Assembly: GCA_002269645.1 (NCBI GenBank) | Contig: NIVC01001113.1 | Coordinates: 292,077 to 356,076, forward strand | Length of the DNA stretch: 64,000 nt | Reading direction: 5' to 3' | Source: Macrostomum lignano | Taxonomy: Eukaryota | Shown here: piece by piece, positions 3,847-63,785 of the stretch | Position numbering within the stretch: position 1 is the stretch's first letter | Layout: the number at the start of each line of letters is the position of its first letter | The notes under the pieces: generated by a model | What the model was told of the DNA's origin: nothing | Seen by the model: only the letters and a program-made list of their open reading frames with translations | Database searches by the model: none | Made by a program: the position numbers and the translations under genes

Positions 3847-4670
3847 ATGGCCTCCTCTACTCCCATCCATAGTCAGATAATCAACACTATTAAGAGCATT
3901 AGCACCAAAGATTCAAATAGTTCCGCCGTTGTTAGTAAGTTGGATGCTGATGAGCAGCAGCAACTACTAAAAATTCTGAAACTAATAGAAAGTCAGTCCA
4001 CGAAGAAAGATCACACCCGAGAGAAACTCAACAACAAAGAGGCAAAGCATCTAAGAGAAGCGCGATTTATTGCTCTCTTGACGGAAAAGCTTGACAATGT
4101 GAAAAACGAGTCAATTGTCGTCAAAACTCGGTAAGTTTTATTACAGAATCTTATCACATAGTCAATAACTTTTCAATGAGAAAACAACATTTTATTTCAG
4201 TTTCTATATGAGGATCTATGGATCTATGTGAGGAGGAACTTGGTCAGGAGGAAGGTCAACTAATCGTTCAGTTTTCTAAGTTGCAAGACTTTATTAGCAG
4301 TCTAGAAATTTTAGCCTGCCTATCTAGAAGGAAGCAGGCAGAAGTTATTGCCAAGCTACGCGAATCCCTTGGCTTGAGCATCAAAGGCGTTGCTGCTAAA
4401 CTGCAAATCGATGAAAAGTTCGCTGAAAGACTCTATACTTTTCACAATCTAATCGTCAAATATCCAGTCCTAGTGGTATCAGGTTACAACTTTGAAACAC
4501 TGCTAACCCACAAGGCTCTTATTCAGAAAAAGGCGGCAGAAGACGAGAACTTTGCTTGCCGCCTTGGAGTTTCGCCAAACATACGATACGAGGGCGCTGA
4601 CGAGACCGACGAAGATATGCTGCTAGACGAAGCAACTGATGACATGGCAAAGTCATTAATTTCTGGATAA
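3847..4670 (+). pseudogene. Two-exon viral gene of unknown function, possible helix-turn-helix protein (exon 1 3847-4130, intron 4131-4200, exon 2 4201-4670)
   Basis: GTAAGT donor at 4131, TTTATTTCAG acceptor ending at 4200; paralogous to 16203-17186 with an intron at the same position and phase; small frameshift at the start of exon 2. Confidence 0.6.
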
Positions 4671-47034: not shown

Positions 47035-47366
47035 ATAATATGCAAAACAAGGACAACTTAAGTAGATATAAGTAGTAGAGGATAACACAACTCTGCCGCA
47101 GGGAAAGCCACGGAAATTCCGTGGGTCCGGATCAGAAGGGCGCCTATGTGTTTGCATAGCTCAACTCTGCCGCAGGCAAAGCCATGGGAATTCCTTAGAC
47201 TCCTAATGAGAGTACATAGGCACCTGTGTCCCATAGGGGTAATGTGAATACATAGCCGCATGTGTTTACATAGGAGATATTTGTATATAAACCAGAAAAT
47301 TTGTTTTCACAAATAATAAAAAAATTTGAAATTCTCGCTCCGTTACATCGTAATAACTAATTAATA

Positions 47367-47912
47367 TTGGTCGATATTGGAGAAGGCTACAAACTTCAAG
47401 TACAAGAGTATGAAGGAGTACAGTTTATTGCGATTCGGAAATTTTATCGACATGGCAGCACAGCAAGTTTAAAACCCGGCGTTCCCGGATTTAACCTCAA
47501 CATCCGACAATGGGAGAAGTTGAAAGAACTGAAGCGAACTCTCGTGAAGGCGGCCCTAGGCGGGCAACAGAGGATCATCAAACTCGGTTTTGATAAGTTT
47601 GTTGAGGTTAAGAACGGCATCATCTGGCTAAGACGGCTTCCAGAAGATTGCTGCGAAGAATTTTTGAAGCGAAACACTGTGGCTTTGGCACCAGCTCTGT
47701 GGCGAAAACTGTGGGAGCAGGCTGCATGGATCGACGAGCAGCTGTCTGCCCCACGCCAAATTTCTGATGTGTATGAGCTGGAGTCGGGATCTTCGAGCGA
47801 GAGAAACGGTGATGATGATGACAACAGCAACAAGGACGACACCATGCGGCTTGCGAAGACTGCACTCTACGCATCGACGATGAAATGGTCACATCAACGC
47901 CTCTACCGGTGA
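47367..47912 (+). CDS. Tandem PC4/Sub1-like ssDNA-binding (transcription coactivator p15) protein
   Basis: LQVQEYEGVQFIAIRKFY...LKPGVPGFNLNIRQWEKLKE matches PC4 VxIRxxY...KPGxxGIxLxxxQWxxL; a second degenerate repeat ends in VALAPALWRKLWE. Confidence 0.75.
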   Translation: MVDIGEGYKLQVQEYEGVQFIAIRKFYRHGSTASLKPGVPGFNLNIRQWEKLKELKRTLVKAALGGQQRIIKLGFDKFVEVKNGIIWLRRLPEDCCEEFLKRNTVALAPALWRKLWEQAAWIDEQLSAPRQISDVYELESGSSSERNGDDDDNSNKDDTMRLAKTALYASTMKWSHQRLYR

Positions 47913-48088
47913 CAAGTGCTGCAGCTGGCTTTATCCCAAAGCAGGATTCGGATTTGCTGCAGGACCCAGTCTGGTATCGCTTCCGGGCTGAAGCAGCTGC
48001 GGTCGAGAACATCAGGAAGCGCAAGCAACCATATCCGCTGCGCAGGCAGAATGCCATGAGACTGCGCCTCAATGAGGATGAGGAGTGA
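47885..48088 (+). CDS. Small hypothetical protein (67 aa)
   Basis: Overlaps the PC4 gene end; basic RKRK patch and acidic tail; no recognised domain. Confidence 0.4.
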   Translation: MVTSTPLPVTSAAAGFIPKQDSDLLQDPVWYRFRAEAAAVENIRKRKQPYPLRRQNAMRLRLNEDEE

Positions 48089-48534
48089 AGAAGAAGAATA
48101 AGAAGTGCTTTGAAGAACTTTGGTGACTGGTGACATACTTAAATTGGCTCATTTAACAATTTCTATAATTAACATTGCTCATTTATCCAGAAAACTTAAT
48201 TAAGTCTCTCCATTTAAGAAAATCATGCAACTTATTGTTTCTTATCCGCTAAAAAATATAAAAGCTTCTTTTCATAAAAAAATTGTTTTCCTTTGTTCTT
48301 GTGCTTAAGAAAAAATTAGACTGTTGACTTTTGTTTCTTGAGAAAATGGAAAAAATTTACTTTGCTCCTGGCCAACCAGCTAGTTTTTCAATTTGCTCAA
48401 AGCTGCTGCATCAAGTTGGAGAAGAGGGTGGGCATAAAAATTGAAAGAGCATTGAACAGTGGCTCAATGAGCAAACCGCGAAAAGAACTTAAAAAAAATT
48501 GTTTTGCAGGCTTTCATTCAGCTTGATTTTGATA

Positions 48535-49604
48535 ATGGAAAAGATCTACTACAACCCTGCTCAGCCTGCCAGTTTCTCGGGTGTCTCAAAGCTTCTGCAC
48601 GAGCTCAAGAAAACACAGGATAATCGTGAATCTAAAAAGAGCATCGGACAATGGCTGACTGAGCAGCCTGTGTACACACTGCACAAGCAAGCTAGGAGAC
48701 GCTATCCTATGGCACCAATCATTGTTAGGGCTATTGATGATCAGTGGGAACTTGACCTGGTTGAGATGATACCATTTGCAAAATACAAAACGGCTACAAG
48801 TATATTCTCACATGTATAGATGTCCTCTCTAAATCTGGTTGGGCCAGGCCTCTAAAAAACAAATCAGCTGCGGAAGTCAAGTTCGCATTCGAGAGTATCC
48901 TGAGGTGCTCAAAGCGCCAGCCACGCACAGTCCGCACGGATCAAGGAAAAGAGTTCATCAATACAAATTTTCGGGAGCTCTGTATAAGCAAGGGAATTTT
49001 GGCATTCCCCACTAATAGTGAGCAAAAAGCAGCCATCATAGAGAGGTGGAATAGAACTTTGAAAAACAAAATGTGGCGATATTTCACCCACAAGAGCACT
49101 TTGCATTGGGTTGATGTGTTGCCAAAGCTGGTCAAGTCGTACAACAACACTTACCACAGAAGCATCAAAATGGCACCGACTAGCGTATGCAAAGAGAATG
49201 AGACTGAGGTCTGGATGAACCTTTACAATGGAAGAGCCATTGAGACTGTAAATAAGCCAAAGAAGCCCAAATTCAGTGAAAAGCAGTCAGTGAGAATTTC
49301 CAATGCACCCAGGCTATTCCACAAAGGATACAAGGCCAACTGGAGTGAGGAGGTGTACACTGTAGTATGTAGGGCACCGAAGCACTATCCGTACATGTAC
49401 AAGATTAGGGACATAAAGGGTGAGGAGATCCGGGGTCTCTTTCATGAGCATGAGCTGCAGGCGGTGCCGGACTCACAGCGACTGTATGTGATTGAGAAGA
49501 TTCTGAAAACGGAGAAGCGGAAGGGAAAAATTCGCTATCTGGTGAAGTGGGCCGGCTACGACTCGACAGGCTGGGTGGATGAAAAAGACTTAAGAAAGGT
49601 TTAG
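48535..49604 (+). pseudogene. int: Maverick integrase with C-terminal chromodomain, one frameshift near 48788
   Basis: QWELDL / RTDQGKEF / IIERWNRT DDE triad; YVIEKILK...YLVKWAGYDSTGWV chromodomain; frame shifts in the A-run caaaac. Confidence 0.93.
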
Positions 49605-49623
49605 CTTTTGCGCATCTCTTCTC

Positions 49624-50450
49624 ATGAGGTTTAACATTATAATGCGAACTATTTTGATTAACAGTGAGCATGCTGAAGGTACTCCTAGTGACTTTAATTT
49701 TTACCTGTCTTCACCTATTTACTTGGATCGAAATGTGGACTATGAGGCAGGTCTGGCTGAAATCCATCTGCCTGCTGCATGGTTCAATGTTGACGAGCCT
49801 TACTGCTTCACTGTCTCAGATGGAAGAGAGCATGAGGCCCTGGTTCTTCAACCCGGACGCTTTGCTAGAGTGGAGGAGCTGGTGGAGCGTTTGAATCAGC
49901 TGCTGGCCAACTCTGATTCGCTATTCTTTGATGCAATGAGTGACAGGGAGTCTGAGATGGAGGCTGATGAGTCCGGCCTGATGGGGCGTAGTGGCAACAG
50001 GGAATTCGGTATGAAGTTCGAAATCCGCAACTCACGAACTGTGGTGCACAACAACACTGCGAGAGCAGAGATGTTTCTCCCATCCAGCAAAATTCTGCAT
50101 TGGCTGGGATTTGGAAACCAGGCTGTGAAAATCCAGCCAGGGAGCCGCGTGTCCGAGCACTGCATTGGCTGCCCGCGCACCAGCTTAATCAATGTGCACT
50201 GCAGTATCGTTGAGTCAACTAATTGCAACTTGGGCTCCCTGTTGAGAACAGTTGGAATGAAAGCCGGCATTGAATGGGGCAACTATCAAACAAAAATATT
50301 TAAGAAACAATATTCTTCCCGATTCAACGAATCAGTCTTCTTCACAGCATTCGAGTTCAGCTGCGTGACATCTATGGTTGCCCACTGATTGCCCAGACAC
50401 TCAGCCCTGTTCTGCTCACAGTTCAGATTCGGGAGAAACGCATTCAATGA
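49624..50450 (+). pseudogene. Minor capsid protein (penton), element C, frameshift near 50312
   Basis: TPSDFNFYLSSPIYLD...YEAGLAEI; the alternate frame gives the expected tail FPIQRISLLHSIRVQLRDIYG...VLLTVQIR, stop at 50450. Confidence 0.85.
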
Positions 50451-50835
50451 ACTACCAGCAGCTGATCCAGCAATATTCGGGGGTGAGGACAGGACACGAA
50501 AAGCCTGCACTCTATGGTGTGGGAGCTTTCCGGGGATCATGACATACCAGCCTCCGCCAGCGGCTACATCATCATTCTCAACGCATAGCAATGTCAGGCG
50601 CAAAAGAAATACTGAAGCAAGTCCGAAACGATTGAAGAAGAAGAAGTACACCCGAAAGGCAACTGGTAGAGATCGCACCAATAAGAGGTGCAATGAAAGA
50701 AATCCGAGCAAGGCTAGTAGGAAAAAGCTTAAGAATAGGAAGACGAAAGCAAAGAAGAATGCAGCAGGCGGAGGAAAGCGAAAGCGAAAAGTCAGCAAGA
50801 AAACTGTGAAACGCGTGCTCGACTCTCTGTCATAG
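50447..50835 (+). pseudogene. Basic K/R-rich core-like protein, frameshifted
   Basis: ATG overlaps the penton stop (ATGA); MNYQQLIQQYSG...LYGVG then shifts to a very K/R-rich tail; located just upstream of MCP. Confidence 0.55.
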
Positions 50836-50837
50836 AC

Positions 50838-52120
50838 ATGGCTTACGGATTCAATCCCAGACTTGATTTATTTAAGACGCCTGTTCTACAAACCTGCATT
50901 GAAAAAGCTACTTATGTTGATGTTCACCCAGTAAATTCCATTACTGCAAACTCCCCCATTGAATTTGACTGCCACCAATCTGCCGATGAATACACTGATT
51001 TGCTTAATTCTTTTCTTTATATTCGCTGCCGCCTTGTGAGACTGGATGGGGGTTTGCTGAGGGAGGATGTTCGAGATGGAGATGGCATCATCACCGAGCG
51101 CAGAGACAGTGACGTGCACCCAGAAAACTTTGTTTTGTCTACAGCCTTCTCAGATGTAATTGTGAGCATTAACCAGCGAGTGGTATCTGGTGGAGACCAG
51201 CTCTATCCCTACCATGCGTACTTCAAAGCACTAATGAGCTCATCTGATGCCCAGCAACTAAAACTTTACCCTGCTGGCTTCCTGGAGCCGAACTCGGCAG
51301 CTGAAGAGCACACGGAGAGCCACAGGGAATCCCGATGGATGGAGTATGCGGGACCGCTCTTCAGCGATGTTTTCCAATGCCCAGTGTTTCTGCTAAACAA
51401 TCTGCACTTGCACATCAAACTGGTGCCCAGCGATGGGGCCTTTGCCATCAGAAGCCCGAATGCAAACAACGCGGCATACCGCATGGAAATCTCTCACTGC
51501 ATTTTGCATCTTCGCCGAGTCAAAGTGGTGCCCCACATCAGCCTGGCCCACGAGCAGGGGTTGACAAACCAAAATGCACTGTATCCCATCGAGCGAACTG
51601 AAATGCAGAACTTCATCCTACCCCAGGGCATTCAATCTAAAAACATTGAAGGATTCACTCATGGAAAATTGCCGAAGTTCATCATGCTGGCCTTCGTGAG
51701 CCACCGTGCATTCAACGGTCATCATCACGCGAGCCCGTTCCAGTTCCAGAGCTTCAACCTTAGCCGGTTGGCTCTAAAGAAAGGTGGGGAAACCGTGTGC
51801 CACGGTGCCTTCACACCTGAAAACAATTCCTTTGTAAGAGAATACTTACACTACCTGAAAAGCTGTCAATCTGCAAGCCACACGAACTCGGTTCCGTGGA
51901 TCCCTACCAGCTCTTCTCCAACAACAGCACGGTGTTTGCATTCGATCTCACACCAGAGGGAGCGGCTCTGTGGTACGGACAGAAGGAGGGCAACCTGCGG
52001 TTGGAGATTCGCTTCCGACAGGCTCTGGACGAAACGGTGTCCCTGATCGCTCTGTGCCTGTATGACTCGCTGATTGAGGTCACCAAGCACCGGGAGCTTT
52101 TGCTGGACTATTCCTCTTAA
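50838..52120 (+). pseudogene. Major capsid protein, element C, frameshift near 51880
   Basis: LDLFKTP...PIEF...YTDL...YPYHAY...LPKFIMLAFV...PFQFQSFNL; C-terminus TVFAFDLTPE...GNLRLEIRF is in the next frame. Confidence 0.92.
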
Positions 52121-52125
52121 CTGGC

Positions 52126-52635
52126 ATGGAAGCAATTCAACTACTCCATCTCGCCAGAAAATTTTTGTCTTGCCGAAAATTCTTCATCATTACTTTACAT
52201 TCACGCTATAAAAATGTATTGTCTTTGAGTCTAAAAAGAAAATATCGATCAATTCCCTTTGAAAACAAGTTTGTGTTTATCCTACTACAGCACAATGGCT
52301 CATTTGGTCATTGGGTGGTGTGCTATGCTGGGCAAGGAAATTGCATTGAGCTGTTCAACTCCCTCGGCTGGGAACCTGAAATTTTATCTGTGGTTTATAA
52401 TTTGTTTCGAGAGATTAAAACAACTGGCTTTTATCTCCGAAGCAATATAAACAGATTTCAATGTGCTAACTCTAATAAATGCGGAGTGTTTTGCATCTAT
52501 TTTGCTTATCAAAAGTTGCTGATCAATCGGTCATTTGAGGGTATTTTAAAGAGTTTGCACTCTAATGAAAAAAATCATTTGAATGATAGAATCTTACAGA
52601 GGTTTGAAGCCAACTTAAGAAAAAGATGTCCGTGA
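52126..52635 (+). CDS. Adenain-like cysteine protease, element C
   Basis: GHWVVC...ELFNSLG...FQ...KCGVFCIYF; Asn replaces the usual FDS Asp. Confidence 0.85.
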   Translation: MEAIQLLHLARKFLSCRKFFIITLHSRYKNVLSLSLKRKYRSIPFENKFVFILLQHNGSFGHWVVCYAGQGNCIELFNSLGWEPEILSVVYNLFREIKTTGFYLRSNINRFQCANSNKCGVFCIYFAYQKLLINRSFEGILKSLHSNEKNHLNDRILQRFEANLRKRCP

Positions 52636-52664
52636 TTTTCTAGAACTATATTTATGCATTAGAC

Positions 52665-53312
52665 ATGGGAGAAAAGCGAGTTTGCTACGATATCCGCCTC
52701 AGGCAGGGAAGCTGCATGATTGTCTGCGGGCCCACCAATGCAGGAAAAACAACCTTTGTCAAACACCTGATCCAGTACAGAGACGTCATGTTTGATGTGA
52801 AGCCTGGCAGAGTTCTGTGGTACTATGGGATCTCACAGGCAGGCCATGCAGAACTGAGCAGCCTAGGTGTGCAGCTGCGCCAGGGATTCCCCACCAACAT
52901 CGAGGCAGCACTTAGGCCCAATGACCTGGTTGTTTTCGATGACTTAATAGAGGAAACTTCAAATTCTGCTTCAATGCGAAATTTTTTCACAGGAATCGCA
53001 CATCACTTGCCGTGCTTTTTGGTGATGCTGACTCAGAATATATTTTTCAAGGGAAAAGAGTCGCGAACAATGAGCTTGAATGTAATGTACTTAGCTATCT
53101 TGAAAAACCCCCGAGACCAGCTGCAGATTGCAGCACTGGGCAGGCAGTGCTTTACAGAGAAGCCCGGCTTTCTGCTGTCAGTGTTCAAGCACGTGACCGC
53201 GCAGAACAGGGGAGCCTACCTGTTCCTAGACTTTCACCCATCAACTCCCGATGAGCTGCGAGTGCGGGCCAGAATTTTGCCCAACCAGCGACCCCATCTT
53301 GTATTTGCTTAA
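52665..53312 (+). CDS. A32-like packaging ATPase, element C
   Basis: VCGPTNAGKT Walker A, LVVFDDL Walker B, AHH...TQNIF, KNPRD motifs. Confidence 0.93.
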   Translation: MGEKRVCYDIRLRQGSCMIVCGPTNAGKTTFVKHLIQYRDVMFDVKPGRVLWYYGISQAGHAELSSLGVQLRQGFPTNIEAALRPNDLVVFDDLIEETSNSASMRNFFTGIAHHLPCFLVMLTQNIFFKGKESRTMSLNVMYLAILKNPRDQLQIAALGRQCFTEKPGFLLSVFKHVTAQNRGAYLFLDFHPSTPDELRVRARILPNQRPHLVFA

Positions 53313-53354
53313 GAAAGTGAAGCTTGTTTTTTATCGGCTATTGTTTTCATCGCT

Positions 53355-53693
53355 ATGGAAGTGCTTGATTCACATGCAAGTCTTTTTGCGGTTCTTGCGT
53401 CACCTAAATATACCGTGCGCTTCAAGCAGCTGTTGATAAAAAATTGTCCAAAAGAAGTGCGTTATTTTCTTGTTGAGGCCTGTCATAATCTCTTACAAAA
53501 CAATTTATCGTTTTCGATCGATGAAAAAGCTGTTCTTGCAAAGTCAAAAGAGATAATTCGAAAAATTACTCAGCAGAGAAGAAAGATAGACTTGTTAAAG
53601 GCTGGCTTCATCAAAATACTCCCGATTCTGCTTAAGCTGGTAAAGAAAAAGAAGCAAAATGAACAAATTTTCAGAAATGGTTCTGATTTCTAA
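53355..53693 (+). CDS. Conserved Maverick hypothetical protein
   Basis: LLIKNCP...LVEACHNLLQ...LAKSKEIIRKI...GFIKILP pattern recalled from Maverick ORFs downstream of the ATPase. Confidence 0.6.
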   Translation: MEVLDSHASLFAVLASPKYTVRFKQLLIKNCPKEVRYFLVEACHNLLQNNLSFSIDEKAVLAKSKEIIRKITQQRRKIDLLKAGFIKILPILLKLVKKKKQNEQIFRNGSDF

Positions 53694-54351
53694 AGCAGAG
53701 TATGAGATGTTAGTGCAGAATTTGAAGCCAAATGAGACTAGCACTGACGCTGACTTGAAGCAGGCTCAGAAGAAATGCGATGATATCTTGTATGCCGAGG
53801 ATTATCCAGAAGATGTGAAAACCGCCATGTATCAAAGTGCAATGCAAAGTTTGCTGGCCAAGCGCAAGCACGCTGGAAAAGAAGGATCACGAAATACTGA
53901 AGCCAAGTTGATGAAAATAGAGACACCCCAGATGAACACCTGGGAAGAGAAGATCAGCAAGTCGGTGCCACAGAAATTCAAAACCAGGGCTCGCAGTCTA
54001 TGGACGATCCTGTCCACCAATCCAGAGCTGATTGGAGTTTGTGAAAACGGAGAGGTGGAAATCGCAGGCACGTCAATCCCTTCCTCAAACATACTGGACT
54101 TGATTCAGCACGCAGTGAGGGATTCGTCATGTGAGCGTGAACCAGTTGGGTGGAACGAGTTCATCGATTTGCTGCAGCAGAAAAAGCTTAATGTTCCGCT
54201 TTCTGCTGTTGGTAAATCAGTTAAGAAGAAAATGGCAACCAGCAGAGGGGGTGAACTGGAGAAAGAACAGGAGAGTCTAGTCAAGGGGTACGGGAGCAAC
54301 ACAGCCTGGCTGAAACTGCCTGGCAGAAAAGTATATAAGAAGGTGGACTGA
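53659..54351 (+). CDS. Conserved Maverick hypothetical protein
   Basis: MVLISKAEYE...DVKTAMYQ and IPSSNILDLIQH...PVGWNEF...LNVPLS pattern recalled from Mavericks. Confidence 0.6.
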   Translation: MNKFSEMVLISKAEYEMLVQNLKPNETSTDADLKQAQKKCDDILYAEDYPEDVKTAMYQSAMQSLLAKRKHAGKEGSRNTEAKLMKIETPQMNTWEEKISKSVPQKFKTRARSLWTILSTNPELIGVCENGEVEIAGTSIPSSNILDLIQHAVRDSSCEREPVGWNEFIDLLQQKKLNVPLSAVGKSVKKKMATSRGGELEKEQESLVKGYGSNTAWLKLPGRKVYKKVD

Positions 54352-54379
54352 CTCCGAAATTTCGAGGGAAAGCTGCATC

Positions 54380-55231
54380 ATGAACTACATTGACTTCCAA
54401 GGATTCCCGTGCAACAGCACAAGCAAAAAATTTGTTGTGAAGGAGTTGGCAGTTGTTCAAGTCAGAGCGGGAAGCTACCGAATTGCTCACCATGTGTACG
54501 CACCTCCGTATCCATGGGAGAGAGTCTCACCTGACATGCGAGTTTGCTACAGACAGCTATCAAAGAGTCTGCACCAGTTTAAGTGGAATGATGGAACCCG
54601 TCCGTACATGGAACTGGCGGAAGACATTCTGAGGATTGCCAGTGGTCCGATCTGGACAAATGGGGAAAGGAAGTCTATTTTCCTGACTGAGCTGCTTGGT
54701 AGACAGGTTTATAACCTAGAAGATTTGGGAGCACCCTCGACTGAAGATTCAGATACTGGCTGTGCAGTGAGAAATTCGTTGCTGCACTACAGTTGGCTTA
54801 AGCCAAAGTTCTGCATCAACTTAAGAAGCGAGCAGTGTCCGTGGCACACGAGCAGTAAAGTTGGCAGAAGCAGATTTGGTGAAGAAGTTGACGATCGAAA
54901 TGAGCCCACCAGCTACAGCCCTAAGAGTGAGCAATCTGGTTGGCGGAGTAGATCTGAGGCTGGATGGTGGCAGGGGCGCTCAGCTACCTCTACGGGAACT
55001 GGCTCTCAGCATGGCTCATGTGATCTACCGGCCCGTCTGGCCCCGGGTGCTCATCAAGCGGATGCGAAGTCCCAGAGTGACTCTGCTACTCTACCCTACT
55101 GGGCAACTGAGCATCTGCGGTGCCAAGACCCACGCAGACGCCAAAAGGGCTGCCCGTCGCTTCGTGGCTATGCTGCATCGGAGAGTGCCAGCTCAACTGC
55201 TGCCTCCTCAAGCCATTTGTGTTCGGATTAA
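54380..55231 (+). CDS. DEDD 3'-5' exonuclease-like protein; 3' half is read-through overlapping the TBP gene
   Basis: IDFQGF...FVVKELAV, KSLHQFKWNDG, NLEDLGAP, CAVRN pattern. Confidence 0.55.
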   Translation: MNYIDFQGFPCNSTSKKFVVKELAVVQVRAGSYRIAHHVYAPPYPWERVSPDMRVCYRQLSKSLHQFKWNDGTRPYMELAEDILRIASGPIWTNGERKSIFLTELLGRQVYNLEDLGAPSTEDSDTGCAVRNSLLHYSWLKPKFCINLRSEQCPWHTSSKVGRSRFGEEVDDRNEPTSYSPKSEQSGWRSRSEAGWWQGRSATSTGTGSQHGSCDLPARLAPGAHQADAKSQSDSATLPYWATEHLRCQDPRRRQKGCPSLRGYAASESASSTAASSSHLCSD

Positions 55232-55490
55232 AACTATTACTGCTCATGGTAAATTTAACTTCTGCAATGCTTTGTCCCTCACAAATCTTGCTGCCTCTGG
55301 CATACTGTCTTACGCTGAGTATGAGCCCGAGTCGTTCTCTGCTCTAATTTATACATTACGTTATTGTAAATGCTTGTTATTTCATACTGGTTCTTTTGTT
55401 CTTAGTGGAGCAAAATCTATGAGCATGTTGCGCTTCGACCTTTCTACGTTACATAGTTTAATCAGCCAGTTTATCACCTATCAAAAATAA
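54861..55490 (+). CDS. TATA-binding protein (TBP/TRF) homologue encoded by Maverick C
   Basis: Two TBP repeats: VSNLVG...LRELAL...YRP...LIKRMRSPRVTLLLYPTGQLSICGAKT...AARRF and YEPESFSALIY...LLFHTGSFVLSGAKS, collinear with NIV..[33 protein letters not shown] and YEPELFPGLIY..LLIFVSGKVVLTGAK. Confidence 0.88.
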   Translation: MAEADLVKKLTIEMSPPATALRVSNLVGGVDLRLDGGRGAQLPLRELALSMAHVIYRPVWPRVLIKRMRSPRVTLLLYPTGQLSICGAKTHADAKRAARRFVAMLHRRVPAQLLPPQAICVRIKTITAHGKFNFCNALSLTNLAASGILSYAEYEPESFSALIYTLRYCKCLLFHTGSFVLSGAKSMSMLRFDLSTLHSLISQFITYQK

Positions 55491-56217
55491 ACAAAAAGTG
55501 TGTTCCGTTTGTTCTTGAATGTTTGCGTAAATTCATTACGGAAAACCGCATCTTTAAATTATTTATTTTTATTTTAAAAAATAAGTTTTAACTAAAAAAT
55601 TAAAGGTGAAATGAGCATAGAATAATTGAAAACTGGGAGCTAAAACGCGTAATCAGATCTCTCCCTCACAAAAACAGAAAAGGGCATAGAACCCATTCCA
55701 AAAAGGTTCTGCCAAAAGCGAAATTGCTTAGATTGATACACGTGAATGAAGAAATTAATTAATCAAACTCGACTGACACTCATACATGTAACTGGACCGC
55801 AAAATTACTAGTATAGGCAAGAAATTTCAACAAAAGCAATGCAAAGAAATGTTTTAGCATCATGTTAAAAAATTAATAAATGAACATAAAACTCAGCAAT
55901 AAAAATTTCAATACATTAAATTTACTGACTTTGCAATTTAATATTACGAGTAGAAATCGTGCAGTTACAAGGTACTGAAATAAAATTACTAATAAATTAA
56001 TAGCTAGCATTAAGACTTCAGACAAAAAGTTCAAAAAGACACTAAAATTACGGTGAAACAGGGGAGGCAAATTGCTGCAACTTCTTCTATCTGAGATAGC
56101 AAAATTGAGACAGCATATAATTTAAACGGATAAAGGCGAGTATATGTTTGAAGAAACCAAAGACTAAATATTCAGAATAAAATGTGTAGAGGCCGTGTGA
56201 TAAAAAGTTATACTCAG

Positions 56218-59200
56218 TCACTTATTAAATTCGTAGTCTTCTTCCCGTCGCCGCTTTCGGGAGGCTGTAGCATTCACGTGCTGTTGCAGCTGCGACGACT
56301 CCGGATGAAGAAGTTGAAAATGGCCAAACGGGAGACTGTAGTTCGGTGCAAGCCAAGCGCGCTTGTCCTCCCAAATGCTTAAGGCACACTTTCGCTGCTG
56401 CAGCGTGAATAGCCTGTGTTGGATGCTAGCGATCCTGTGGATGATGACGGACATGCTACTCAGATCATTGAAGACTCTCAAGTAATCACTATGCGCAATC
56501 TCCTTCTTGACAACACATCCTTGAATGCCTTTGGCTTTTTTCTTTTCAGCAGTTGCAGTGCTAGCGAGAAAGGAATACAGCTTTGGTCTCAAAAGCAACC
56601 ATTCGAGATAGCGAGCTCCAGCTCCTTCGTCCTTGATGCAACCGAGGCGAGCTTTCAATTCATTTGAGAACAGCGGGTGCTCAGGTGAATAGTTGGAAGT
56701 GTCAAGGAGTTTCTTTGCTTTTAGCAGTGGAAGAACTTCCGACTGCACATCCATATTCTGAATGCAAAGAAAGAGCGAGTCGGTGTCTCCACCACAGAGC
56801 CGAACACGGGCACCCTCTTGCTCAAGCCAAGGCTTCAATTTGTCGTAGAATAACTCGTACATGATTAGCTTCGAATAGTCAAGAACACACTGGCCAATAA
56901 AAATCGGACGATCAAGCTTGACCTTAGTCTTCTGGAATTCAATTATGCTCAGTGAGTCGGTAATTATGATAAAGTTCTTAATGGATGGTTTTGAAGCCAG
57001 CACCTTTGCTTTTGCAGTGTTGGTGCAAATCCGAATGTCACGTCGCTTACGCACGTTTTCCATTGTTTTTCCGAAGAGCGCATTGTTTTTTAGTTTGTAG
57101 TAGTCTTTCTCGAAGCTGTTTGTCGCAGCAGCTCTTTTCACGCTGTTCATGTTAACATAGTCAGCAAATATCGGCTCCTGTTTGTACTCAATCATTCGAT
57201 TAATTCGTTTGATTTTCATTCCATGGCTCAAGTAGAATGCCAAGATAGCCGAATGAAGCACATAACTCTGCTTGTCATGGCAGGTGAGCAGAAGTTTTTC
57301 TGCCGAACGATAGGCTGCTTTGTCTCCAGTAATCTGCCTCCAAAGCTGTTGCATGTAGGCAGGAAATTCTTTGAATTTTGGTGCTTCTTTTTCTGGTGCA
57401 AAAGGCAAATCTTCAGTGGTGGAATGTATCTCTGCTGGATATAGAAGATCGACATCGAGCAGATAAGCAATTGGATCTGAGATTTTGAGCCCTCGGATAC
57501 GATCCTCGGTCCACAGCTGTAGCTCATCTTCGGAAAGCCAGCGAAATCCATTTGCAGGTAAGTTCATGGTAAGAGCTTGACCGTAAAGGTTGTTAGCATC
57601 TACTGCTAGAAGCTCGGTAGGAACAGCTTGATCAGCGCCCTCGTCGTGACAGTCATCATCATCATCATCATTGTCATTGCAGATAGTCTGATTGTCAGCT
57701 GCTTCCAAATTTTTTCTAATATCTGGAGAGTTGGCTGACACTCTGTGTATGTTCACAAATGACATGCCACCGCGAATACCGCGCTCGAATGTTGCATACA
57801 TTTGCGAATCCGTAATCAGCTCGATTCTGGATTTGAGAGACTTCAGTGCTGAAGCAAAAGATAATCCCGGGGTTGAAACGAAATGCACCGGATCAAGGCC
57901 ATCATCACGAAGGCTGAGCTTGCGAAAATTTTCAAAGACATCGGCGAGCTGCCGAATGTCAAGCTCAAGGTAGCATAGCATGTACTCTTTCAGCGTTTTA
58001 ACTTGGAATTCATGCCATGCTTTCTGTGCATGCCTGTAATCCTCATCACTGCAGTGGCTTTTAGTCAGAACGTTGTAGAATTGTTCTTTACTTGGCAGCT
58101 CGGTATCCTCAAGGACATTTGAATTAGTTAAGTAGTCGTACGGAAAAGTGCATTTTCTGAATAAAACTTCTGGAGACAACAGTGGAAACTTACTTTTTAG
58201 CAGGCTAGTGATGGTGCACTCTTCTTCTGGCAGGTTCTTGATCAGCTGAGCCAAGCTGGCGTTGAGAAATTGGTTAGAATCAATGAATTGAATGGTAAAG
58301 AACAATGGCTTAGTCTTTCCTCCCCTCTCGTACTCATCGATTTTGAAGTCAACTTTCATTGAAACAAACTGCTCAGGATTCTGTGGAATAACCGAAATCC
58401 TCCATCCATCCATGAGATCCAAAGCCGTTGACATAATGAGATGAAGGTCATAGCCTTTTAGATTGTGGAAAACCACAGGAAGAAAGCGCCTTTTTAGACG
58501 AGCCTGCATGTTGCACTGAGCACAGGCTGCACCTCGGAATTCGCCACTGAGGTGATCATGATCCCAGTGCTTTCCGCTTTCACTATCAAAGCCGCTTCCG
58601 CAGTAGTGACACGATATAGCGTCGCGGAAGCGTTGCTTTGCAGCCTCCGTTCTAATAGCCGTCTGATGACTGAACTCCGTGTTCCAGCCATAAACCTCTC
58701 GAGCTAGCTGTTCAAGGGACTGCAAGAAGTCAGAAACACACTTTTTCGGATTTTCACTCACAAATATGTTAACATCATTGTCGACTCCTATAGGTGATAA
58801 CCCTGTGAGGCCTGCTCGGTGCACCACCAAGTAACCAGCAGCAACGGCAACATGCTCTGTCAGCTTTACAGTGCTCGAACCAGCTTCAGTCTGCTGCCCT
58901 GTGTGAGGTGCATTCAATGCCTCGAAGTCGGCGTACACAATGAATGGTGGGCTGATTGTCTTTTCCCACGCCGTAAACCGAAGTACATTGTGATCTTCAT
59001 CCGGAAGTTCTTCCTGAACAAAAATCCCACCAGGCTCACAGATATCTTCACAGTGCTCATCGAACGCCTTGCTAGTGTGAAATGACAGCAGACATCGCTC
59101 ACACCACTTTCGCTGGTACAGGTGGGCTTTACTGTTCAGCAATCTGTTGATGTTCGAGACAGCACACCAATGACCACCAGCTGAGTTCTCGTTCGTGGAT

Positions 59201-60562
59201 GGTGGAAGAAACATCAGCAGGACAACTGTTCGTCCTCTCATGGTAGCTGCGCTTGGCTGTCGGAGGACTTCAGCAGCTTCATTCTCCCAGGTGAAAACAG
59301 TGAAGCAAAGGGTTGGATTTAATTCCTCGACAGCAGACAGATCGTACAAATTGATCGGCAGACTCAGTCCCGTAATGTTAATCTCATCTAGCCATTCGGT
59401 GTACGAGGATTCTCGTTGAGCTGACTTCTTAATACGGCAGTGATCTTTGTGAAGAAAGGCAAGGCACGCGTAAACAAAGCAATTTTCACCGCTGCTAGGA
59501 GGAGAAATGACGGCCTTCTTTTGAAAAAGCGCAGTCGGCAAACTAAACCCAGCCGCATGCCCCGAATAGTAGGGAGTTCGAACAGCGAGGGCAGAGCAAA
59601 GGTCGAAGAAATTTATTTTGTCAATGGCCCATCCACTGCCATTAGCGTTGTACACGTCTACTCTCTGCTCTAACTCTGCAAATTGCTGCCTCCACCAGTC
59701 ATCAAATTCCTGCACATCAACCAGCATACAAAGATTTGTACTCATCCATTTGTTTTCAACATTGACTGCTTCTGCTGCCTGCACCCGAATCATGCGCACG
59801 TTTAGCTTAATTTGTGCTCTTAGCGAACAGTTGTCAAAGGAGTCAAGACGAACTTCGAGATACTGCAGAACCGCATGTTTGACCAGGTCTAGAAACTCGA
59901 ATGGATCAATGTCAGCTGTTGGGGCGAAGCGATGAATCTGCAGTACATCATCGTGGGCACTGTTCACCAAGGAGATAACACATGAAGACCCTAAAAATAA
60001 AATCGAGAGATAAGATAGTGAAAATCGAGAAACATAAACTGAGAGTCTCATGATTGCTTATAAATCCAGCTCAATTAGCTATTCATAATAATCGATGTCT
60101 GTATTCAGAATCGAGGAGGGTGTTTTTGGATGTATACAATCGATATAGGTGTGCAGAGGTGTGCGAAGTCGAGGTGGGGTGTCCAGAGTCGAGGTGTGGT
60201 GTCCAGAGTCGAGGTGGGGTGTCCGGAGTCGAAGAAGGGATGTGCAGAGTCGAGGAGGGGTGTGCGGAGTCGAGGAGGGGGTGTGCGGAGTCGAGGAGGG
60301 GGTGTGAAGAGTCGAGGAGGGGGTGTGCAGAGTCGAGGACGGGGATGTGCAGAGTCAGGGTTGGTGTACGGACTCGGGGTGGGCGGGTGTTATTACGCAT
60401 TAATTAAAACTGAATTAGTTACACATTTCGAGTTGAAGGTTTAAAATTTTTCCACTTCAAATATTGGTAAGAAAATAATTGATTTTTTACATTAACAGAG
60501 TGGCAAAACTCACCTGCTCCTTCACCTGCTCTTCGCCTAGAACATGTTGTAGGATCCTGCAT
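56218..60562 (-). CDS. polB: Protein-primed DNA polymerase B of element C; predicted exon 1 60562-60514, intron 60513-59991, exon 2 59990-56218
   Basis: Uninterrupted ORF with CHYC...DHDHLSGEFRGAACAQCN, VDANNLYG, YKLKNNALFGKT and GDTDSLF; the GTGAGT donor and TTTTTAG acceptor join in frame. Confidence 0.92.
60150..60360. repeat. About 19-21 bp minisatellite (GTGCAGAGTCGAGGAGGGG) inside the predicted polB intron
   Basis: About 10 tandem units. Confidence 0.9.
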
Positions 60563-61324
60563 GTTGCGACTGCCGGCTGCCAGGCAATGCTGATGCAGAT
60601 TTGTCTGCTTCCAGCTTCGAATTGATCAATTTTAAGGCCAATGGCAATGCTTAGCTTAAAAAGGAATAATTAAGAAAAATGCAAAGTAGAGATCGAATCT
60701 AGTTAAGATGCTCTTATTCTATTCGCGATATTGAGACTTAGCAACGAGCACCAAGCTATAGAAAAGCAGCCCGCGGATAGTAAAAACCTCAAAATCAAAA
60801 CTAATAGTCGAGTAATGCGAATAGGTTGCCATGATGCGATAGCTTTTAGCATCAAATCCACCGATACGAGTTGATTTGCTATTTTACTGTCTAGTTTGCG
60901 TTTTTTTCTAAAAATAATTCAATGTTTATTATGAGAAAAAAACAATGCAAAAACAACGTGTATTTGGTATAAACGGCTTTGTAGCAAGAAAATAATTTAG
61001 AAGAAGAAACTTTTATTTAGCATTAAATTACAAACTTTCTGCATAGAAAGCAGTATAATTCATTATAAGCTACCATGTACATTCTTGCTCTCCTAATAAC
61101 TAAATATTGGTATCAAAGAGCCTCCAGCTTGATAAACTGCTTAGCCCAGCCCAACGAGATAAATCACAGGTAACATGCACTGAAAAGATTAATTTAATTT
61201 AAGCAGTTTTTAACTTCTTTTAGAGCTCCTCCCCTTATCAAAAGTCCACTCATTTTTGTAGAACTTTTTTTGCGTGCTAAAAATTCGTTTCCCTTGCCAA
61301 CAAAATACTCCAGGCTAAAGCAAA

Positions 61325-62308
61325 TTAAGAGTTACTCAAGCGAATACGGATCCCCCCTCCAAAGTCAATTGAGTACTCGCCCACAACGCTACTCGGTAGG
61401 ACGAATTGAAGGCAAACTGACGGTGCAGCCATCGGTTCAGCGGCTTGGACTCCTGCTGATTGTTGAACCACCGGTGGGGTAGCATGAGGTTCGACTCCTG
61501 CTGATTGTGGAAACTCTGGTACCACCGGTGGGGTAGCATGAGGTTCGAAATCTCGTAGGAGATCAGACAGGCTGGCATCCGCCATCATTCCAGCCATATT
61601 TTTTCCAGCGACTGGAACAGCCCTGTGCGGTGGCTGCTGCTCGACCGTGGCTTTTTCGTTCGTCTCCTCCGGCTCCAACTCGTGCTCCTCAAAGAAAGCC
61701 GTGTCCAATTCTGGCGGAGCAACAAAATCAGCGGCAGCAGCATCATCGTCATGGCGATTTACCGGTGTCTGAAGACTGAGAGCACCAGCCGCTGGAACGT
61801 CAACGCTGGCAGCTTGATGGTCGATGCCAGCAGGTCCAGGAGCAGCAGCTGGATAGTCGACGCTGGCAGGTCCAGGAAGGCTGGCAACATCAGCTGGATG
61901 CTGATCTGCAGCAGCAAGTGCAACGGAAATCAAATCAAAAGTACATGTAGTTGAAATTATTGCAGATTGATTTCGCACACCTTGAATCGTCTGGCTCAGG
62001 GTGCTGACCGGGGCTCGATGACGCTCGATCATGTTGAGTTGCTCCTGGCGGTGGGCGGCCTCCAGTACAGTAAAGCGGGCTCGTTCGATGCTATCAGGCG
62101 AGCTCCAATTAATGATGGTGTGATTTTTATGGGCCCGAACTTGGCGGCGCACATTGAACAGCTCAGTTGTCTGGCACTCGTGGCAAAGCAACCAGCGACT
62201 TATAATGCAGCTGTCTTTTTTGTTATGGAGCTTTAACCCACCGAGCTCACATGAATTGCAGCTGATGCACACCTCGTGCACGTAGGATGGACACCGAGAT
62301 TTATTCAT
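61325..62308 (-). CDS. Cys/His-rich, acidic/Pro-rich putative regulatory protein with an LxCxE motif
   Basis: N-terminal CxxC/H clusters (CISCNSC, LLCHEC, HKNH), long acidic Ala/Pro region, duplicated VEPHATPPVV. Confidence 0.6.
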   Translation of the reverse strand: MNKSRCPSYVHEVCISCNSCELGGLKLHNKKDSCIISRWLLCHECQTTELFNVRRQVRAHKNHTIINWSSPDSIERARFTVLEAAHRQEQLNMIERHRAPVSTLSQTIQGVRNQSAIISTTCTFDLISVALAAADQHPADVASLPGPASVDYPAAAPGPAGIDHQAASVDVPAAGALSLQTPVNRHDDDAAAADFVAPPELDTAFFEEHELEPEETNEKATVEQQPPHRAVPVAGKNMAGMMADASLSDLLRDFEPHATPPVVPEFPQSAGVEPHATPPVVQQSAGVQAAEPMAAPSVCLQFVLPSSVVGEYSIDFGGGIRIRLSNS

Positions 62309-63785
62309 TATTTAAAAATCTATGAGAAATTTAGTTTAAAATAAAATTTAAATTTAAACTTCTCATATGCACATATTTAGCCTCTTATATACCCACTTCA
62401 ACCAAATCTGTGTTAATAAAAACATAGCCGCTATGTTTTCAGCTTTGCTATGTTTACAGTCAGCCACCCAATGTCCAATGATTTCATCAGCGCATCCAGG
62501 TATTGAGCCCTTGTTAAATTCCCGCACGCCCCGCTAAATTCTTTTGAATACGCCGCCAACTTTACCCCACCCAGTCGAGGGTGGCAATAAAACTACTGAT
62601 AACTGAGCACTCTCTCCTTTCAGCAACAAAGCCGCCGCCGCCGCCAGCTCCCAGACAGCGGGAGAGAGAGAGGCTTGGCTACCACTATTTTTGTTTACAG
62701 AAGTTTGTTATTACCGATAAAATTATATAATAAAGTATTAGTATAATACTGAATACAATAAAATACCGCTGATATTTGCCAATCGTTCAACACAATTTCT
62801 AGAGATTCCCCTAGCTCGCCTCTGTGCATACTTGCGGATTCCCCCATGAGGTGCCTATGTACTCTCATTAGGAGTCTACGGAATTCCCATGGCTTTGCCT
62901 GCGGCAGAGTTGAGCTATGCAAACACATAGGCGCCCTTCTGATCCGGGCCCACGGAATTTCCGTGGCTTTCCCTGCGGCAGAGTTGTGTTATCCTCTACT
63001 ACTCATATAGATATGTTACTGAGTAGTCATTGATGCATAAGCATGCACTTTTGTAGTCTGCGCCCCCCCCCGTTCAAAAATTTCTAGATCCGCAACTGAA
63101 GCCTTTTATGTTAAAACTATTGCCAATTTATTCCTTAATTGGCCATTATTGCTTGTGAGAGTAGACTATGCACTCAGCAGCATGTTAATAGCTTCCACGC
63201 CGAAGACAGACAAACAGACAGACAGACAGACCGACAGTTTTTCTGGACGCCTAGAAAAATGTACATTTAAAATCTGTTGGTGACACAAAAAATTTAAGGC
63301 TTAAAGCTACTCTTGTGCTTAAGTGAAAATGTACTAAAATGTGTCCAGCGGTGTCGGAACATATTTCAAAGTGGGGGGGGGCTATTGGTGGGAGGGCACA
63401 TTGCAAATTATTTTTTTAATCTAAAGGCACCCTAACTCCCTGCTTGCGACATTAATTGTGACAACCAGGCAATATTCGATTCTGTGTTGGAAGTGGCCAA
63501 AGTCAGAAAAGTTCGAATTTTCAACTAATTCAAACAGTGCGCAACTGCACTGCACTATCAATTTATTTAGTAAATACCTCAAATGATTGAAAATTGCCAG
63601 GCAAGACCAGTAATTTTCTGGATCTCTTGGCTGCCTCCTTCAGTTCCTCTTGGCGCCGTCTCATTATTTTATGTGACGGCATTTTTTGTGCTTTTAGTTG
63701 CGCGCCAGAAGCGGTTTAAGTCTAGGGATTGCGGCGGACTCGGAATTTCGATCAGAGATTTAGTAAAAGAGCTGAATACTAAAAC

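Follow-up and report, generated by a model that had tools for sequence, protein, structure and literature searches.

Described PC4 proteins and the tandem-PC4 gene

PC4 and its fungal counterpart Sub1 (PF02229; PDB 1pcf, 4usg and 4bhm) are homodimers with two equal strand sites and an N-terminal regulatory region. A viral PC4-fold protein that binds single-stranded DNA (ssDNA) and is tied to replication is found in phage T5 (PDB 4bg7). Tandem PC4 is common in algae and protists, with two to four repeats per chain (e.g. P0032 from Chlamydomonas eustigma, with DEK-C and PC4 repeats). Here we describe a tandem-PC4 gene in a 15.9 kb Maverick/Polinton element of Macrostomum lignano, which spans positions 47,071-63,003 of a 64,000-nucleotide stretch (contig NIVC01001113.1, positions 292,077 to 356,076; hereafter the window). 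The open frame 47,361-47,912 (plus strand) is the first gene-like plus-strand frame past the left terminal inverted repeat (TIR), and the parts of the gene are:

47367..47558, plus strand: PC4 repeat 1, four strands and a helix (Pfam, human PC4 match, model); the start codon is non-ATG here
47571..47747, plus strand: PC4 repeat 2, with a shortened hairpin, under purifying selection (repeat profile, HHalign, model, pN/pS)
47748..47860, plus strand: Ser/acidic linker up to the break, a 22-nt gap relative to a sibling copy
47861..48088, plus strand: remainder of the gene, read in another frame in the window copy, with the linker end and a conserved basic tail (sibling comparison)

The first-pass annotation had described one clear and one degenerate PC4 repeat in this gene, and both were recovered. 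For repeat 1, residues 6-56 of the frame score 30.5 bits against PF02229, above the cut-off of 25 (E 2.5e-7), and the repeat also matches human PC4 by sequence. Repeat 2 alone has no Pfam match. A profile of repeat 2 made solely from the family alignment scored at least 10 bits in 12/129 canonical PC4 proteins, in 0/2,580 shuffled and in 0/129 reversed sequences, and matched every repeat in four-repeat PC4 proteins. HHalign related repeat 2 to 173 canonical repeats at 94.8%; the reversed control reached 0.2% and the highest of 30 column shuffles 4.3%. The ratio of non-synonymous to synonymous differences per site (pN/pS), from 15 pairs of six uninterrupted copies with synonymous sites close to saturation, was 0.19 for repeat 1, 0.23 for repeat 2, 0.32 for the tail and 0.69 for the linker. 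Given its ratio beside that of repeat 1, repeat 2 is altered and not decaying.

The boundaries first proposed, 47,367-47,912, begin at the start codon position, where there is no ATG, and end at an early stop that results from a 22-nt gap, near 47,860, in the comparison with the sibling; coding resumes in another frame to 48,088. Met is found at the start position in 19/20 compared loci, the window copy alone being without it. Sibling proteins of 242-255 aa have the two repeats, the Ser/acidic linker and the conserved basic tail, which contains a conserved RKRK-x-P-x-x-LRRQ-x-A/T stretch. The gene has at least 150 matches in the genome, where three Maverick families (A, B and C) were distinguished; the window element belongs to family A. 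Judged by eye, the family A tail seems unrelated to that of family B.

The gene is less new than had been implied, as an adintovirus record already has a similar gene under the name MOSUB. The MOSUB protein (UniProt A0A5H3CIS2, Branchiostoma lancelet adintovirus) gives the strongest viral match in structure, which extends across the full two-repeat domain (E 1.6e-5, TM 0.79); no other BFVD match has E ≤0.001. It is similar in length (203 aa) and shares 18% identity with the window protein, the likeness being structural. In the text layer of Supplementary Fig. S2 of PMC8502044 the MOSUB label adjoins an ITR label and there is no TBP label; the main text of that paper mentions neither MOSUB nor PC4 and so assigns the gene no function.

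Predicted fold and DNA contacts of the two repeats

The model of the protein has the curved antiparallel sheet followed by one helix of PC4/Sub1 (rmsd 1.6 Å to 1pcf). Repeat 1 superposes on human PC4 and fungal Sub1 with an rmsd of 1.3-1.7 Å over 65 residues (31% identity) and is MoSub1-like in keeping R86 and a Tyr at W89. Unlike PC4/Sub1, the Maverick protein has one chain, unequal repeats and C-terminal acidic and basic segments. The single-chain pseudo-dimer that was initially suggested agrees with the model, in which the two repeats are predicted to fold together as an intramolecular dimer with the (four strands + helix)-linker-(four strands + helix) arrangement of type I PC4-like domains, and with a full-length structural match of the two-repeat domain to Pur-alpha repeats I-II. 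Identity to the type I domains (Pur-alpha repeats I-II, Whirly and MRP1/2; PMC7549692) is 7-10%; since the viral protein is related in sequence to PC4 itself, its tandem arrangement is likely an independent duplication. The algal and protist repeats are all canonical, and none of those proteins has a degenerate second repeat. The T5 homologue (Foldseek probability 0.96) is, unlike the Maverick protein, a homodimer from a bacterial virus with recombination-dependent replication.

PC4 contacts the DNA backbone through R70, R86, R100 and K101 and stacks F77 and W89, according to the cited portion of PMC4350104. Among 31 aligned relatives, repeat 1 has an aromatic residue at W89 (30/31) and R86 (30/31) and has lost R70, R100 and K101. 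Repeat 2, in which the positions depend on the HHalign register, has R70 (31/31), R86 (30/31) and R100 (29/31), while the F77 hairpin and W89 are absent. The full contact set per subunit of a symmetric homodimer is thus not found, the contacts being shared out between unequal repeats. This division suggests one composite site for one strand, replacing the two symmetric channels of PC4, in which the aromatic stackers of repeat 1 would be combined with basic residues of repeat 2 that contact the backbone. For asymmetric type I domains, binding is described as limited to one strand (PMC7549692). The split of contacts makes a neat case of a homodimer becoming an asymmetric single chain.

The reading we favour, to which we give about an even chance, is that the two fused PC4 repeats make up a single asymmetric unit, which likely binds one DNA strand and acts as the element's early ssDNA-binding protein (SSB) in protein-primed strand-displacement copying. 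It is preferred because protein-primed viruses often supply their own SSB (in the relevant passage of PMC4889955) and because T5 uses the PC4 fold for ssDNA binding (likewise in part of PMC7145681). The protein would be made early from a TATA box read by host TBP, would coat the displaced strand and would let the inverted ends of that strand pair; the acidic linker and basic tail may serve regulation and nuclear import.

Promoter motifs, distribution and the role of the protein

The features that bear on timing are:

47284..47290, plus strand: canonical TATATAA box, predicted early promoter, 83 nt ahead of the PC4 gene (motif match)
48304..48311, plus strand: CTTAAGAA, first of six; others at 49589, 50728, 52614, 53308 and 54820
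54900..55490, plus strand: element-encoded TBP, two PF00352 repeats (Pfam E 4.8e-26)

A TATA match lies 46-112 nt ahead of PC4 in 8/9 upstream regions (families A and B and a metagenome contig) and also precedes the last gene at the opposite element end. Beside tandem PC4 homology and selection on both repeats, the gene has a terminal position with a TATA box in two divergent families (A versus B identity: PC4 ~33%, TBP ~35%). Terminal early genes are an adenovirus-like pattern. The CTTAAGAA sites precede the integrase, penton-like, capsid, ATPase, orf53355 and TBP genes, on the coding strand only; the six sites were matched by 0/200 shuffles, an optimistic figure as the motif was selected after viewing the sequences. 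In family B, (C/A)TAAGAA occurs 5-6 times on the gene strand and not on the other (3/3 loci), and two stretches examined in family C contain no CTTAAGAA. The baculovirus late promoter contains TAAG, as CTTAAGAA does, and the viral TBP may read CTTAAGAA as a late promoter. With a TATA box upstream of one and CTTAAGAA of the other, PC4 would be an early gene and TBP would belong to a later class.

These two promoter classes, TATA before PC4 and CTTAAGAA before the capsid-module genes and TBP, bear on a dual role, which we regard as possible and hold tentatively: the early ssDNA binder would also activate late genes, binding melted or freshly replicated templates and aiding the viral TBP in starting host RNA polymerase II at CTTAAGAA, through its C-terminal extension and not in a fixed complex with TBP. 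Such a role is well within the evidence because the transcription role of yeast Sub1 maps to its C-terminal extension; CK2 sites follow the PC4 domain in fission yeast (both in cited passages of PMC9600219), as the Ser/acidic stretch follows the domain here. Both PC4 and TBP are also retained in families A and B despite altered gene order. The unlike tails of the two families argue against it, as do the reassortment of alleles described below and the MOSUB figure with its missing TBP label.

Loci were picked to cover the identity range. TBP is present in 15/23 fetched family A loci and in 7/9 family B loci, two of the latter having come from TBP matches. All 10 loci without TBP are also without its neighbour gene, through deletion, interruption or truncation. 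At C12, a family A locus, TBP sits in an oppositely oriented piece. The gene order of family B differs: PC4 is at the element end, next to TBP and oriented towards it. In family C, both genes are absent from 7/7 loci (tblastn and six-frame profile search), only one of which covers the whole element as judged by terminal hexamers. This family has a conserved, beta-rich 110-aa gene with an acidic end (L100:1355-1681, G000 C283), absent in all 32 A/B loci, for which the nearest named Atlas cluster is phi29 SSB (0.91), with a poor model (pLDDT 61) and weak OB-like matches. The pattern over the three families is compatible with both the SSB and the transcription readings.

Outside the genome, ~20 relatives with a degenerate repeat 2 were found among the 150 matches listed; canonical PC4 proteins with one repeat or several made up most of the rest. 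The external relatives looked up sit on contigs <2.6 kb; scans of viral contigs found no relatives, and a metagenome scan found one contig with a relative (1.5 kb). Two degenerate tandem-PC4 relatives, P0057 and P0077, have a longest contig of 1,655 nt each and are perhaps neighbouring paralogues. PC4 and TBP relatives occur in public assemblies in similar identity bands, unlinked, and the PC4 clusters of the Atlas (116-134 aa) are mostly eukaryotic (0.86-0.90).

It had been proposed that the PC4 protein may act with the viral TBP as part of a virus-encoded pre-initiation module. Families A and B have both genes, the TBP-less loci being those also without the neighbour gene, and C has neither; these are two or three lineages of one genome and not independent tests. 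A dedicated module, in which the protein is a coactivator bound directly to viral TBP with no replication role, is in our estimate quite unlikely. In its favour, besides this distribution and the similar identity bands of the public relatives, PMC9600219 counts Sub1 among the components of the pre-initiation complex and describes its interaction with TFIIB. Against it, PC4 and TBP do not share a promoter class, the symmetric site for two strands, which would suit a promoter bubble, is apparently lost, the N-terminal regulatory region of host PC4 is absent, and the Sub1 partners named in the cited part of PMC9600219 are TFIIB and Rpb4/7, with TBP unmentioned there. Of the two roles first put forward, that of an SSB is favoured, indirectly. 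The distribution over the families speaks for the module with viral TBP, and the promoters, the MOSUB figure and the allele data speak against it.

Family A copies are mosaic, and PC4 alleles combine freely with differing polymerase and TBP alleles. By rank correlation, PC4 agrees best with the TBP N-half (0.67) and the protease (0.61), less with the TBP C-half (0.42) and least with polymerase segments (0.18-0.36); in C114 and C1944 the PC4 repeats are 97-98% identical and the TBP C-halves 75%. Mean TBP identity is 87% in the N-half and 66% in the C-half. PC4 is without tight coupling to either TBP or polymerase, and if anything is coupled slightly more to TBP. Mosaicism is also seen in family A loci L022-L036 and L073, where capsid segments are 85-100% identical and polymerases ~50% in the same copy pairs.

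The terminal early position and the conserved tail stretch could also point to a host-directed accessory, which would hide replication ssDNA from the damage response or bind RNA, its tail acting on host kinases or cyclins. We take the RKRK-x-P-x-x-LRRQ-x-A/T stretch to resemble cyclin-docking and CaMK/Chk-type kinase motifs. Among its relatives, Pur-alpha, Whirly and MRP are RNA binders or have roles in repair. Short motifs occur by chance, however, and family B is without this tail, and we consider this role improbable.

Two kinds of rearranged copy concern the PC4 end. In L093-L094 (C664) and L091-L092 (C862) this end is present at both termini, inverted, in place of the other end, and such copies may be template-switch products of strand-displacement copying. 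At L028:2136-8628 a nested insertion places a family C element immediately behind PC4 in a family A copy.

The surrounding element and significance

The ends and the polymerase of the element are:

47071..47225, no strand: left TIR, AGTAGT end; inverted arm 47,066-47,225, 98% identical to the right arm
62849..63003, no strand: right TIR, ACTACT end; inverted arm 62,849-63,008, 98% identical to the left arm
56218..60051, minus strand: protein-primed-type DNA polymerase B, 1,277 aa (length, position and motifs judged by eye)

The AGTAGT-type TIRs, a target duplication (6-nt flanks identical at 5/6 positions), integrase, polymerase B, ATPase and protease identify a Maverick/Polinton. The integrase and its chromodomain are above the profile cut-off, the protease and A32 ATPase are weak matches, and the sole Pfam match in the polymerase is Endonuclease VII. 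Named relatives of the element TBP, at 83-88% identity, are in Macrostomum lignano. The window copy is decayed, with the integrase (48535-49604) and capsid (50838-52120) genes also broken across frames and the integrase start duplicated (48347 and 48535). The last gene at the right end (61325-62308, minus strand), with a TATATAA box at 62391 ahead of it, is fast-evolving with a Cys-rich N-terminus and is a candidate early regulator. The frame upstream of TBP (54380-55231) extends over the TBP N-half in family A, as does a frame in family B (L062, 4199-5125, overlapping TBP at 3988-4626), a possible overprinted gene.

How the displaced strand is protected in protein-primed replication, and how capsid genes are timed without an RNA polymerase, are open questions in Mavericks, and our literature search found no paper treating SSB or PC4 in these elements. 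A bolder proposal, which we rate as doubtful, is that the tandem PC4 couples replication to transcription as an early protein. Expressed from a TATA promoter of host type, it would coat displaced strands and, with the element TBP, bring host RNA polymerase II to CTTAAGAA, a late promoter private to the element. If true, these Mavericks, having no such polymerase, would obtain an early-to-late cascade from captured general transcription factors. The labelling of the gene in adintovirus records limits the surprise; the tandem-PC4 protein is a small, testable candidate for strand protection and possibly for the timing of capsid genes.
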